Positions 7,410 through 13,902 are shown, numbered from the stretch's first letter. The stretch is 14,590 nt of DNA from a virus (IMGVR_UViG_2563366895_000002:1-14590); one strand, 5' to 3'. The notes: a model not told the origin generated them from the sequence alone. Program-made: numbers and translations.

Positions 7410-7793
7410 ATGCGTGATATTCAGATGGTTCTTGAGCGTTGGGGAGCGTGGGCGGCTAATAATCATGAAGATGTGACCTGGTCGTCCATTGCCGCCGGTT
7501 TTAAGGGATTAATTACTTCAAAAGTAAAATCTCGCCCGCAATGTTGTGACGATGACGCGATGATTATTTGCGGGTGCATGGCCCGTCTGAAAAAGAACAA
7601 CAGCGATTTGCACGATTTATTAGTAGATTATTATGTAGTCGGTATGACATTCATGTCACTGGCAGGTAAGCATTGCTGCTCTGATGGTTATATCGGGAAA
7701 AGGTTACAGAAGGCTGAGGGCATAATTGAAGGGATGTTAATGGCATTAGATATCCGGTTAGAGATGGATATCGTTGTTAATAACTCTAATTAA
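7410..7793 (+). CDS. quuD: Late-gene antiterminator Q homolog (QuuD), 127 aa
   Basis: ATG at 7410 (the track's 7395 start is an upstream TTG); translation [24 protein letters not shown]... with the Cys cluster [12 protein letters not shown]; sits immediately upstream of the hairpin cluster and lysis genes. Confidence 0.85.
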
Positions 7794-7810
7794 TATGCCA
7801 ATTGTTTACT

Positions 7811-7844
7811 AAAAATTATTAAAAATGGGGCGTTGAGACGCCCC
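7811..7844 (-). terminator. GC-rich hairpin GGGGCG-TTGAGA-CGCCCC with U-tract on the minus strand
   Basis: Stem 7827-7832 / 7839-7844; the + strand upstream is AAAAATTATTAAAAAT, which reads as a T-tract after the hairpin on the minus strand. Could terminate nmpC transcription or be part of the late promoter region; strand assignment is uncertain. Confidence 0.4.
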
Positions 7845-7883
7845 CAAAAATAAAGGGTAATATATAACAGAAGGTTTATATAG

Positions 7884-7972
7884 TTAGAAGCAAGGTTGTG
7901 CTTCTAAAGGAAGTGGCTTGAGGGAGCCACTTATATGTTGGGGAGGCAACGCCTCCCGCAACATATCTTTTT
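7884..7972 (+). terminator. Three consecutive hairpins downstream of quuD, the last followed by CTTTTT (tR'-like intrinsic terminator)
   Basis: Hairpins at 7884-7907 (TTAGAAGCA/TGCTTCTAA), 7911-7932 (AAGTGGCT/AGCCACTT) and 7933-7966 (ATATGTTGGGGAGGC/GCCTCCCGCAACATAT), then T-run 7967-7972. Position between Q and the lysis genes fits a lambdoid late leader/terminator. Confidence 0.5.
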
Positions 7973-7982
7973 CGTAATCAGA

Positions 7983-9080
7983 TTAGAACTGGTAAACCAG
8001 ACCTACAGCAACGATGTCATCAGTGCTTACACCGAGTGCTTTAGTGAAGTCATTTTTGTCAAGCAGGTTGATTTTGTAATCAACGAAAGTAGACATATTT
8101 TTGTTGAAGTAATAGGTTGCACCTACATCAACATATTTGACTAAGTCCTGATCGCCCCATACTCCAAGATCTTTACCTTTAGATTGCAGGTAAGCAACGG
8201 ACGGACGCAGACCGAAATCGAACTGATATTGTGCAACAGCTTCGAAGTTTTGGGCTTTATTAGCAACGAAGTGATCAGCAAATACAGTCATATTCTGGGT
8301 TTCAGAATAGGTAGTGGCCAGGTAAATGTTGTTAGCGTCATATTTCAGACCTGCGGCCCAAACTTCTGCATTTTTACCGGAAGCAAATACTTCAGGAAGA
8401 ACTTTCCCTGCATTAACTTGAGTGTCGGTACGATCAGATTTCGCATAAGTTGCACCGATACCGAATCCTTCGTATTCATAGGTAGCAGAGAAACCGAAGC
8501 CATCACCGTTACCTTCAGTGTAGTTATCGAAATCGCTACGATCGTTTTTGCCTTGGTACTGAGCAGCAAAGTTCAGACCATCAACCAGACCAAAGAAGTC
8601 GTTGTTACGATAGGTTGCAACACCAGTGGTGCGACCAGTCATGAACACATCTGTTTGGGTCCAGGTATCGCCACCGAATTCTGGCAGAACGTCAGTCCAC
8701 GCACCGATGTCGTATGCTACACCGTAGTTACGGCCGTAATCGATTGAGCCGTAGTCACCGAATTTCAGGCCTGCAAATGCAAGACGGGTTTTGTCTTTGG
8801 AGGAACCTTGAGATTCAGCGCGGTTGCCTTTGAATTCATATTCCCACTGACCGAAACCAGTCAGTTGATCGTTGATTTGGGTTTCACCTTTGAAGCCAAG
8901 ACGGGCATAAGTAGTATCACCATCATCTGCATCATTAGAGGAGAAGTAGTGCTTGGCATTAACTTTCCCGTACAGATCCAGCTTGTTACTGTCTTTATTA
9001 TAAATTTCAGCTGCCTGAGCAGACATCGCCATCAGTACTGATGCAGCTACAGCAGAAATTGCCACTGTTAATTTTTTCAT
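7983..9080 (-). CDS. nmpC: Outer membrane porin NmpC (OmpC/OmpD family), intact 365 aa with signal peptide
   Basis: Translation begins [29 protein letters not shown] and ends with the porin C-terminal ...VAVGLVYQF; full length with no interruption. Confidence 0.9.
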
Positions 9081-9668
9081 CGTGAGCCCTTTTTTTTGAA
9101 CTATTATTAAAAAATGATGTCACTGCGCGATAAATATTCATCTAATCAATGTGATTATTTCAAGATGTAAGTTTTAGTTTCTCATTTAATTTGTGAAGTA
9201 GATCTCTATTTTTATCTGAACTTTTTCTATCGAAACCTATTTATGGCTCTTATTTGAACAAAAATAAACCTATTAGCTAATTTATATTAATGGTTGTTAT
9301 TTATGGAGGTTCTATAATTCGGCAGTTTAATTTAAATCAACTAAAAATAACGTCTGAAATTATTTATTGGTTATTTGTTGAGGTTTTCTTATGTATTTGT
9401 GGTGGTGTTTTGAACACTCGGTAGCATTCTCATAAATATCATTCAGTGGTTTACGTACGTAAAAAATTGGTTATGCTGTTAAGAGTGGTTACTTCGTCAC
9501 ACAGCTTAAACCCGCCGTCGAGCTGGTTTTTCCATTTTTTGAGTCTCGATATTAGCTGATAACTCAATACCTGAGTTATTCACTGACTCCGAGTCTGTTA
9601 CGTTTCTGCTTTTTTGCGATACGTTGTATTCCCTCAATTTACACCCGCTTTGTCTGCGAGGTGGGGTT

Positions 9669-9884
9669 ATGAAATCCATGGATAAGTTAACAACGGGTGT
9701 CGCCTATGGCACCTCAGCAGGTAGTGCCGGTTACTGGTTTTTACAGCTGCTCGATAAAGTCACGCCCTCACAGTGGGCAGCAATAGGTGTGCTGGGTAGC
9801 CTGGTATTTGGCCTGCTGACGTACCTGACAAACCTTTATTTCAAGATTAAAGAAGATAAGCGCAAGGCTGCGAGAGGTGAATAA
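9669..9884 (+). CDS. essD: Pinholin (phage 21 S-type), 71 aa, with MKSM dual-start motif
   Basis: Translation [71 protein letters not shown]; ATG at 9669 (the track's 9624 start is an upstream alternative); stop overlaps the rrrD start (TAATG). Confidence 0.8.
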
Positions 9885-10839: not shown

Positions 10840-10870
10840 AGCTGCCCATATCGATGGGCAACTCATGCAA

Positions 10871-11164
10871 TTATTGTGAGCAATACACACGCGCTTCCAG
10901 CGGAGTATAAATGCCTAAAGTAATAAAACCGAGCAATCCATTTACGAATGTTTGCTGGGTTTCTGTTTTAACAACATTTTCTGCGCCGCCACAAATTTTG
11001 GCTGCATCAACAGTTTTCTCCTGTCCAATTCCCGAAACGAAGAAGTGATGGGTGATGGTTTCCTTTGGTGTTACTGCTGTCGGTTTGTTTCCAACAGTAA
11101 ACGTCTGTTGAGCACATCCTGTAATAAGCATTGCCAGAGCGGCAGAAAACAACATTTTTTTCAT
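10871..11164 (-). CDS. borD: Bor lipoprotein homolog (serum-resistance-associated), 97 aa
   Basis: Translation MKKMLFSAALAMLITGC... with lipobox LITGC; ATG at 11164 (the track's 11212 start is an upstream alternative). Confidence 0.85.
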   Translation of the reverse strand: MKKMLFSAALAMLITGCAQQTFTVGNKPTAVTPKETITHHFFVSGIGQEKTVDAAKICGGAENVVKTETQQTFVNGLLGFITLGIYTPLEARVYCSQ

Positions 11165-11523
11165 CTTATTATCCTGCATTGTTAAAAACGGCAGAATCCT
11201 ATGTGACAACAATTAAACGATAGTTAAATGGATTGATGAAAATTAAAACTATATAGGTGGATGCTCAGCCTATTGGAGGAGGGGGGCACTCAGAATCCTG
11301 TGGAATGAAATAAACCGCTCTTTCTGTCCATTACCCTTTTAGCTGCGCTGTATCGTCGCCGTATTCCCGCATTAACCATGACCGTAGCCCGACGGGGAAT
11401 TCCTTCTGCGTGAGTGTGCGGGAATAATCAAAAACGATGCACACCGGGTTTTACTGTGCTGACAGACGCAGGGTTACCCTCATAGTCGCTTTTCCGGTGC
11501 GATGGTGGAAGAAACCGGGATGT

Positions 11524-12106: not shown

Positions 12107-13327
12107 ATGGAAGTCAACAAAAAGCAGCTGGCTGATATTTTCGGTGCGAGTATCCGTACCATTCAGAACTGGCAGGAGCAGGGAATGCCCGTTCTGCGAG
12201 GCGGTGGCAAGGGTAATGAGGTGCTTTATGATTCTGCCGCCGTCATAAAATGGTATGCCGAAACCATGCCACAGGCGAGTTCTGTTGTTTCAATTACGTT
12301 GATTGGTGGCGCTGGATTTAACGTGGGGTCACCTCAACAGGCAGGTATATCTGAACTTGTTTTACGTGCAGGTAATGGTAATCCGAAGGGGATTACTGGT
12401 GCTTTATGGCAGCGCACATCGACAGGGTTTACAAATTTTGCCTGGGTCAATACATCTGGTGATACTTACGATATTTACGTTGCAATCGGAAATTATGCGA
12501 CTGGTGTAAATATTCAATGGGATTATACCAGTAATGCCAGCGTGACGATTCATACGTCACCAGCATATTCTGCTAATAAGCCGGAAGGGTTAACGGACGG
12601 TACAGTTTATTCACTCTATACGCCATCAGAGCAGTTTTATCCGCCTGGCGCACCAATCCCGTGGCCATCAGATACCGTTCCGTCTGGCTATGCCCTGATG
12701 CAGGGGCAGACTTTTGACAAATCTGCATACCCGAAACTTGCAGCCGCTTATCCGTCAGGCGTGATCCCTGATATGCGTGGCTGGACGATTAAGGGCAAAC
12801 CTGCCAGTGGTCGGGCCGTATTGTCTCAGGAACAGGACGGCATTAAATCGCATACCCACAGCGCCAGCGCATCCAGTACGGATTTGGGGACGAAAACCAC
12901 ATCGTCGTTTGATTACGGCACTAAATCCACGAATAACACTGGTGCGCATACCCATAGTTTAAGTGGCAGCACGAATGCAGCTGGTAATCACAGCCATAGA
13001 GATGGCCGTCGATTTAACCCCAGTGTTTTTAAAGATACTTATCAATATGGTTATACAAGCTCAGGTCAAAATACCTGGGGTGTACAAGGCTCAGTAGGTA
13101 TGTCTACGGGGTGGTTAGCGAATACCAGTACAGATGGTAATCATAGCCATTCACTGTCCGGCACAGCAGCATCTGCAGGTGCACACGCGCATACTGTCGG
13201 TATTGGTGCTCATACGCACTCCGTTGCGATTGGTTCACATGGACACACCATCACCGTTAACGCTGCTGGTAACGCGGAAAACACCGTCAAAAACATCGCA
13301 TTTAACTATATTGTGAGGCTTGCATAA
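12107..13327 (+). CDS. Chimeric ORF: terminase small subunit Nu1 N-terminus (aa 1-~52, winged-helix DNA-binding part) fused in frame to a side tail fibre C-terminal region (~354 aa) with HxH repeats
   Basis: First 52 residues [52 protein letters not shown] match lambda Nu1; after about 12264 the sequence switches to tail-fibre-like sequence ([48 protein letters not shown]...) with six HxH motifs (GAHTHS, GNHSHR, GNHSHS, GAHAHT, GAHTHS, GSHGHT). Confidence 0.8.
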
Positions 13328-13902
13328 TGGCATTCAGAATGAGTGAACAACCACGGACCATAAAAATTTATAATCTGCTGGCCGGAACTAATGAATTTAT
13401 TGGTGAAGGTGACGCATATATTCCGCCTCATACAGGTCTGCCAGCAAACAGTACCGATATTGCACCACCAGATATTCCTGCTGGCTTTGTGGCTGTTTTC
13501 AACAGTGATAAGGCATCGTGGCATCTCGTTGAAGACCATCGGGGTAAAACGGTTTATGACGTAGCGTCAGGGGACGCGTTATTTATTTCTGAACTCGGTC
13601 CGTTACCGGAAAATGTTACCTGGTTATCGCCGGAAGGGGAGTTTCAGAAGTGGAACGGCACAGCCTGGGTGAAAGATGCAGAAGCAGAAAAACTGTTCCG
13701 GATCCGAGAGGCGGAAGAAACAAAAAACAGCCTGATGCAGGTAGCCAGTGAGCATATTGCGCCACTTCAGGATGCTGTAGATCTGGAAATCGCAACGGAG
13801 GAAGAAACCTCATTGCTGGAAGCCTGGAAAAAGTATCGGGTGTTGCTGAACCGTGTTGATACGTCAACTGCACAGGATATTGAATGGCCAGCACTGCCGT
13901 AG
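13327..13902 (+). CDS. tfaR: Tail fibre assembly protein (Tfa; TfaR/TfaQ-like), 191 aa
   Basis: ATG overlaps the stop of the upstream fibre ORF (TAATG); translation [54 protein letters not shown]... matches Rac/Qin-type Tfa from memory. Confidence 0.9.

Follow-up and report, generated by a model that had tools for sequence, protein, structure and literature searches.

The hairpin cluster between quuD and nmpC of prophage DLP12 is probably the porin 3' untranslated region and small RNA IpeX, with predicted pairing to ompC mRNA

The region separating the convergent genes quuD and nmpC of the DLP12 prophage carries a dense group of hairpins, which raises the question of the transcript to which they belong: a late leader RNA of the phage, the tail of the quuD mRNA, or the tail of the porin mRNA and its small RNA, IpeX. 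The stretch of DNA analysed here (the window) is 14,590 nt long and, when compared with E. coli genomes, is 100% identical to the DLP12 (qsr') cryptic prophage in many of them. In the RefSeq annotations of strains K-12 and SE11, ylcG and quuD are followed by a porin gene in reverse orientation (nmpC) and then by essD, rrrD and rzpD. QuuD shares 78-81% identity with the Q proteins of Stx phages, 933W and H-19B among them; nmpC is intact in the window and free of IS5, whereas the K-12 copy carries an IS5 insertion; and essD starts at 9669. Positions 7794-7982 are exactly the 189-bp spacer that separates the stop codons of quuD and nmpC.

Folding and sequence inspection of this spacer revealed five stem-loops, A to E, within 7827-7966 (Table 1). 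A preliminary description had reported four stem-loops within 190 bp; these hairpins are real, but hairpin D (7861-7882) had been overlooked. Two of its other observations hold. Indeed, (i) the hairpin at 7827-7844, which it had oriented for the minus strand, is the sole call of a terminator scan of 7794-7982, on that strand and followed by A and UUUUU, and (ii) the strong plus-strand hairpin with CTTTTT that it had noticed at 7933-7972 corresponds to hairpin A, whose 15-bp bulged stem is followed by CUUUUU; folded alone, this hairpin reaches -21.3 kcal/mol on the plus strand and -23.3 kcal/mol on the minus strand, and it was missed by the terminator scanner because of the bulge in its stem. 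The significance of the folding was assessed with 200 dinucleotide-preserving shuffles per sequence, none of which folded as well (0/200 in each case): the MFE is -65.5 (z -5.9) for the 189 nt of the plus strand, -65.1 (z -7.4) for the 189 nt of the minus strand and -62.9 (z -10.1) for the 167 nt of the minus strand from 7982 to 7816.

Table 1. Coordinates of the genes, hairpins and putative regulatory features in the window
Feature	Position	Strand	Description
quuD	7410..7793	+	Q-type late antiterminator of the phage 82 / 933W family; Pfam PF06530, E 3.5e-53; RefSeq annotation of identical loci
nmpC	7983..9080	-	Phage-borne porin; Pfam Porin_1, E 1e-156; annotation of matching loci
nmpC 3' UTR / IpeX (highly probable)	7816..7982	-	167 nt, from the first base past the nmpC stop codon to just beyond the terminator U-run
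Hairpin A	7933-7966	both	15-bp stem with one bulge; on the plus strand then C + TTTTT (7967-7972)
Hairpin B	7911..7932	-	8 bp, loop CCCUCA; inner two pairs disrupted in some variants
Hairpin C	7884..7907	-	9 bp, loop CAACCU
Hairpin D	7861..7882	-	7 A-U pairs, loop ACCUUCUG; loop and 3' arm within the proposed ompC seed
Hairpin E, nmpC/IpeX intrinsic terminator	7844..7827	-	7-bp GC-rich stem GGGGCGU/ACGCCCC, then A (7826) and UUUUU (7825..7821)
Proposed antisense seed, IpeX nt ~107-135	7848..7876	-	Complementary to ompC mRNA at about -31..-6, including the Shine-Dalgarno GAGGG
PR' homologue	~9450..9540	+	-35 TTTACG 9450-9455; -10 TATGCT 9472-9477; predicted start A9484
PR' downstream features	9486-9540	+	Pause-like TGGTTACTT 9486-9494; hairpin 9502-9525; U-rich 9526-9540

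The preliminary description had read the spacer as a candidate leader of the late promoter that ends in a tR'-like terminator. PR' would then lie in the region, a plus-strand leader of the 6S/StxS type would end at a tR' formed by hairpin A and its CUUUUU, and QuuD would load there and read into the lysis genes. Two points favour this interpretation: the region directly follows the Q gene, an arrangement also found in lambda, and hairpin A, with its CUUUUU, is strong on the plus strand. However, a promoter scan found no sigma-70 promoter-like site in 7794-7982 on either strand, and the late promoter of related phages has its counterpart elsewhere in the window. In Stx phages, Sy et al. (PMC7547250) mapped the PR' start to a point that precedes the tR' 3' end by 258 nt and described it as 'closely associated with Q'. 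This distance places the PR' start of phage Stx2 II 7 nt past a TATCAT motif, itself preceded 16 nt upstream by TTTACG, at the end of Q, and for the same stretch the annotation of Ss-VASD gives 'putative late promoter PR''. When the 83-bp PR' element of Stx2 II and PhiR40_1 was compared with the window by blastn, it matched ~9449-9531 and displayed no homology within 7794-7982. In an alignment with H-19B, Ss-VASD and Stx2 II, the mean column identity of PR' is 88%; both promoter hexamers (-35 and -10) are retained, as are the start region TAAGAGTGGTTAC and the hairpin behind it. This PR' homologue of DLP12 sits between nmpC and essD, ~1.65 kb from quuD, and the predicted late-promoter leader lies ~1.5 kb beyond the cluster. 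A Q- and RpoE-controlled promoter of the DLP12 lysis operon has also been placed just upstream of essD (PMC7918800).

The distribution of these elements in phage records points in the same direction. A QuuD homologue was found in 401 records and the PR' element in 362, a number close to that of Q, whereas the hairpin cluster was found in 37, and the phage records with the full cluster carry a porin gene. Furthermore, close Q homologues (85-87% identity, in 1H12 and PhiR40_1) occur without the cluster, and in Escherichia albertii the cluster stays with the porin, beside a different Q. The late-leader interpretation, which can be given next to no credence, is thus already largely refuted: the spacer lacks a promoter, the PR' homologue is elsewhere, and the cluster travels with the porin and not with Q. 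The lambda 6S RNA and StxS (PMC7547250) share with the RNA of the DLP12 cluster that they are short, structured, encoded beside the Q gene and ended by an intrinsic terminator. They are, however, Q-strand transcripts initiated at PR' and dependent on Q-binding and pause elements, whereas the DLP12 cluster is read from the other strand as part of another gene, the PR' counterpart being at 9450-9540.

A few observations were also made on terminators near PR'. In Stx2 II (locus L006, 2982-3005, corresponding to 9507-9531 of the window), a canonical-looking Stx terminator (ACCCGC...GCGGGT, T7) is located ~30-50 nt past the PR' start; the Stx PR' RNA (the StxS precursor) nonetheless extends over 258 nt, to a second terminator. 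The DLP12 copy of this first post-PR' terminator is degenerate. The Stx-type tR' motif GCCAGCCTCCCC was found in the window at chance level only, and the DLP12 hairpin with its U-rich tail at 9502-9540 could be the DLP12 tR'.

The sequences flanking the cluster indicate with which gene it moves. The homology of quuD with its relatives in 1H12, PhiR40_1 and Stx2 II stops between 7769 and 7804. In PhiR40_1, the gap from Q to the PR' element is filled by a different reverse-oriented gene, and the Stx phages have no gap. In E. albertii NBRC 107761 (locus L105), the homologous segment extends from 9387 down to 7818, where it ends, three bases past the IpeX U-run. Based on these homology boundaries and on the alternative occupant, nmpC, its promoter region and the hairpin cluster are best described as one reverse-oriented mobile unit, a moron of ~1.6 kb (from 7818 to 9387/9448) located between the late antiterminator gene quuD and its PR'. 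Morons seem to have been inserted repeatedly at the spot that follows Q. Because the porin moron lies between quuD and PR' in DLP12 and related phages, late transcription would begin past nmpC, would never cross the cluster and would involve no collision. The module works, as shown by the recombinant phage 434B, which acquired by recombination the whole DLP12 segment that begins with Q, includes nmpC::IS5 and reaches the lysis genes. As in the morons of lambdoid phages, the nmpC unit has its own promoter region and terminator, an opposite orientation, sharp homology boundaries and alternative occupants. Unlike other lambdoid morons, it separates Q from Q's promoter (which overlaps the end of Q in Stx phages), and its terminator region doubles as a regulatory RNA.

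In brief, the other occupants and flanks observed at this spot include: a 148-aa ORF between Q and the PR' element of PhiR40_1 (locus L005, 2893-3461); a lipocalin Blc gene as reverse-oriented cargo after Q in 1H12 (locus L004, 2879-3750), where the short post-Q region before blc ends in a terminator of the GCCAGCC... type; and, in E. albertii NBRC 107761 (900-2462 of its locus), a porin and IpeX unit that is 84% identical and lies next to a different, fragmentary Q-like gene. The other flank of this E. albertii unit is joined to sequence matching 10843-11188 of the window, and its holin/endolysin region appears to have been replaced or lost.

A cluster that belongs to the porin gene has to be read on the minus strand. 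The preliminary description had also regarded these structures as the 3' end of the convergent nmpC transcript, and this part stands: the minus-strand terminator lies 162-167 nt past the nmpC stop codon (162 nt when counted to the last U of the run, 167 nt when counted to 7816). IpeX has been described as a 167-nt RNA of DLP12 that is driven by the phage porin promoter, is processed from the porin transcript and lowers OmpC (PMC12197685). It also occurs in phage PA-2 (PMC10690425) and represses ompC and ompF (PMC5069750, PMC3617542); overexpression of ipeX, or of the lc transcript, lowers both OmpC and OmpF (PMC12197685, PMC3617542, PMC5069750). In a published positional list of K-12 small RNAs, ipeX stands between chiX and sokE, an interval that is the DLP12 location. 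The PA-2 lc record J02580, which spans the DNA downstream of lc, is 100% identical to 7756-8050 of the window, and the element was found, beside a porin gene, in 2510 of 5426 complete E. coli genomes (~46%). In the 2006 work of Castillo-Keller, Vuong and Misra, ipeX is said to span the region from the nmpC stop codon to a predicted Rho-independent terminator, and the DNA downstream of PA-2 lc is said to be identical. Reportedly, these authors also observed that IpeX affected OmpC and OmpF and left OmpA unaffected, and that Hfq was not needed for the ompC effect but was needed for the ompF effect.

It is thus highly probable that the cluster is the nmpC 3' UTR and, as a minus-strand RNA, the published IpeX, an assignment based on the reviews, on the geometry and on what the 2006 paper is reported to state. 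As IpeX, the element is already known and would show no structural difference from the published one; hairpin A is its 5'-proximal stem. The small stable RNA suggested by the preliminary description is indeed encoded in the spacer, but as minus-strand IpeX and not as a plus-strand RNA. No separate IpeX promoter was detected in the last 60 bp of nmpC by a promoter scan and by eye. An ipeX feature is absent from RefSeq MG1655 (NC_000913.3, 574340-574528), in which micF, micC and sokC are listed, and annotation-based screens therefore see this interval as empty. Rfam 15 has no IpeX family and gave no match in the region at gathering thresholds. Recognizing IpeX avoids mislabelling the cluster as a late-gene leader, the element itself being an ordinary published prophage small RNA.

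Two other identities were tried and rejected. RsaOG was matched in Rfam at permissive E-values only (E = 2, chance level), and a dispersed REP/BIME repeat was ruled out by the copy number, with a median of one place per genome, a maximum of three, and always the porin locus. In E. coli JB2 (locus L088, 2501-2564), an ISKpn26 element (IS5-like) is inserted in the cluster after window position 7857; the terminator end survives alone beside quuD, the remaining part of IpeX and the bulk of nmpC having been lost.

Sequence variation was examined in 80 IMG/VR loci and in E. coli genomes, at most 10% divergent, which comprised 19 distinct natural variants. Across these variants, 98% of the pair cells are still paired. 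The variable columns are concentrated in unpaired positions (21/71, versus 9/92 paired positions), an approximately threefold enrichment (Fisher p = 0.002), and no compensatory change occurs among the 19 E. coli variants. The E. albertii copy, which is 87.5% identical, displays one compensatory change, from C-G to U-A, in hairpin A. The seven pairs of hairpin E are invariant in the 19 variants, the changes being taken by the loop, and the minus-strand U-run is kept. In hairpin C, a common allele (8/19 distinct variants, about 35/83 loci) converts an A-U pair into G-U and keeps the pair in the minus-strand RNA only, the plus strand having a C-A mismatch. The seed proposed below is the most conserved segment of IpeX in the 19 variants, and three different U-to-C changes in the 5' arm of hairpin D (loci L091, L102 and L105) disrupt the hairpin and spare the seed. 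These independent changes all hit the non-seed arm, from which it would seem that the seed, more than hairpin D, is under selection. When genome contigs were scanned with NmpC, E. coli and E. albertii were the only species in which an IpeX-like tail was found; this tail is missing from the chromosomal OmpD-type porins of Salmonella, Citrobacter and Enterobacter.

These variants also bear on the possibility that the functional RNA is, or includes, the plus-strand 3' UTR of quuD ending at hairpin A. This RNA, fully complementary to IpeX, would mimic the ompC leader and could neutralize IpeX or sponge MicC upon early transcription. The plus strand folds equally well, it has a plausible terminator at 7933-7972, three singleton variants pair better on it, and its segment 7848-7880 resembles the ompC leader. 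Against these points, the T-run that follows hairpin A on the plus strand is shorter in 3/19 variants and is thus not conserved, the common allele of hairpin C is a C-A mismatch on this strand, and there is no promoter nearby, so the RNA would be a mere mRNA tail. We regard this possibility as improbable; it is compatible with the IpeX explanation and does not exclude it. In a more limited role, hairpin A of the plus strand is a plausible candidate for an intrinsic terminator (7933-7972) of quuD or early transcripts: together with CUUUUU, it may halt read-through from quuD and the early genes before this enters nmpC in antisense. The convergent 3' ends (UTRs) of quuD and nmpC would overlap by ~150 nt, and a quuD 3' UTR serving as an antisense antidote upon prophage induction is a weaker possibility.

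The manner in which IpeX, the minus-strand RNA, would act on porin mRNAs was addressed by base-pairing predictions. Reviews describe IpeX as having no base-pairing complementarity to ompC or ompF (PMC3617542, PMC10690425). However, the plus strand at 7848-7880 is the best match of the window, on either strand, to the ompC 5' UTR of MG1655 (26/33, E 0.008), and this resemblance to the ompC leader makes the minus-strand RNA antisense to ompC. The complementarity consists of two seed blocks, nt 107-121 (7876..7862) and nt 127-135 (7856..7848), and the IpeX-ompC duplex comprises 24 bp, that is 15 contiguous pairs over the Shine-Dalgarno sequence, a bulge and 9 more pairs. The overlapping segment nt 109-131 is complementary to the ompF start region. 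RNAduplex applied to full-length RNAs produced meaningless long hybrids; pairing was therefore scored with a windowed RNAduplex combined with opening energies (accessibility), a home-made approximation of IntaRNA. With this score, the IpeX-ompC interaction involves IpeX nt 106-136 and is predicted at -16.5 kcal/mol, compared with -15.7 for the MicC-ompC control at the same site and -15.5 for the MicF-ompF control. The predicted value is -9.0 for IpeX-ompF, over the ompF Shine-Dalgarno sequence and AUG, and -4.2 for IpeX against nmpC's own leader, and no interaction with ompA was predicted by the windowed score. The ompC value was reached by 0/62 dinucleotide-shuffled IpeX sequences (mean -5.4, sd 2.0, z -5.6); the ompF value, reached by 5/62 shuffles, is not significant alone. 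Among 75 K-12 start regions scored in the same way, ompC ranked first and ompF second, the background having a mean of -1.2, an sd of 1.85 and a minimum of -8.2. In E. albertii, the seed is unchanged except for one C-to-U change that gives a G-U pair with ompC.

The alternative that the hairpins are punctuation only, that is convergent terminators and mRNA-stabilizing stem-loops that insulate the moron, with the ompC complementarity as a relic or a coincidence, has to be weighed against these predictions. It would account for a terminator standing at each end of the cluster for the incoming strand, for the lack of covariation among the E. coli variants, for the disruptive changes tolerated in hairpins B and D, and for the label of REP-type palindrome given to ipeX by RepRanger. 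It does not agree with the lowering of OmpC and OmpF by overexpressed ipeX or lc transcript in the literature, with an ompC complementarity that is of MicC grade and lies far outside the shuffled and real-gene backgrounds, or with an element that is single-copy per prophage and not dispersed (median of one place per genome). This alternative is accordingly judged unlikely.

On these predictions, there is a slightly better than even chance that IpeX is a phage-borne functional mimic of MicC/MicF, with an internal seed, a 24-bp duplex with ompC and a shorter one with ompF. Such a base-pairing mechanism, which we infer, would contradict the standing description of IpeX as lacking complementarity. 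Since 2006, the mode of action of IpeX has been given as 'unknown, not base pairing', and the predicted ompC duplex is as good as that of MicC. The strong ompC duplex fits the Hfq independence and the weaker ompF duplex the Hfq dependence that were reportedly observed, and the absence of predicted ompA pairing fits the reported absence of an effect on OmpA.

As regards its likeness to the two host RNAs, the predicted ompC site of IpeX (about -31..-6) overlaps the MicC site with an equal energy, the predicted ompF site overlaps the MicF site, and, like MicC and MicF, IpeX is encoded beside a porin gene. It differs from them in that its seed is internal (in hairpin D and in the linker that precedes the terminator), whereas that of MicC/MicF is at the 5' end, in that it is a 3' UTR product and not a free-standing gene, in its short 3' U-run and in the reported Hfq independence of its effect on ompC. 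No significant homology of IpeX with micC or micF was detected by blastn, the best match at the micC locus being an 11-mer (E 1.1). An exact 11-nt identity, CCAACAUAUAA, is shared by IpeX nt 41-51 (7933-7943, minus strand) and MicC nt 63-73; it joins the 3' arm of IpeX hairpin A to the first stem-loop of MicC and is out of register with the seed similarity.

The proposed sequence of events is as follows. Transcription from the nmpC promoter would run across the porin gene and stem-loops A to D and would stop at terminator E. The 167-nt tail would be freed from the porin transcript by processing, as described in the literature, and hairpins A to C probably shield the 5' side of the processed tail. 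The loop and 3' arm of hairpin D and the single-stranded linker (nt 107-135) could then pair with the ompC ribosome-binding region, and the ompF ribosome-binding region would be paired more weakly, in a mode resembling that of MicC/MicF. IpeX, which lowers OmpC and OmpF according to the literature, would in this way allow the phage porin to take their place. The biology concerned is that of lysogenic conversion, a prophage porin being swapped in for the host OmpC. OmpC is the receptor of phage PA-2.

Two further ORFs of the window were noted. A 69-aa ORF with an ATG start (7935-8144, plus strand) begins within hairpin A and runs antisense across the nmpC 3' end; it is labelled 'ORF1' in the 1986 PA-2 record and hypothetical in phage 434B, and it is probably not a gene. 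Close to the 3' end of the window, a 191-aa ORF (13327-13902) contains a full-length Rfam match to IS009 (RF02111; 13670-13868, plus strand, 226.7 bits, E 4e-56).
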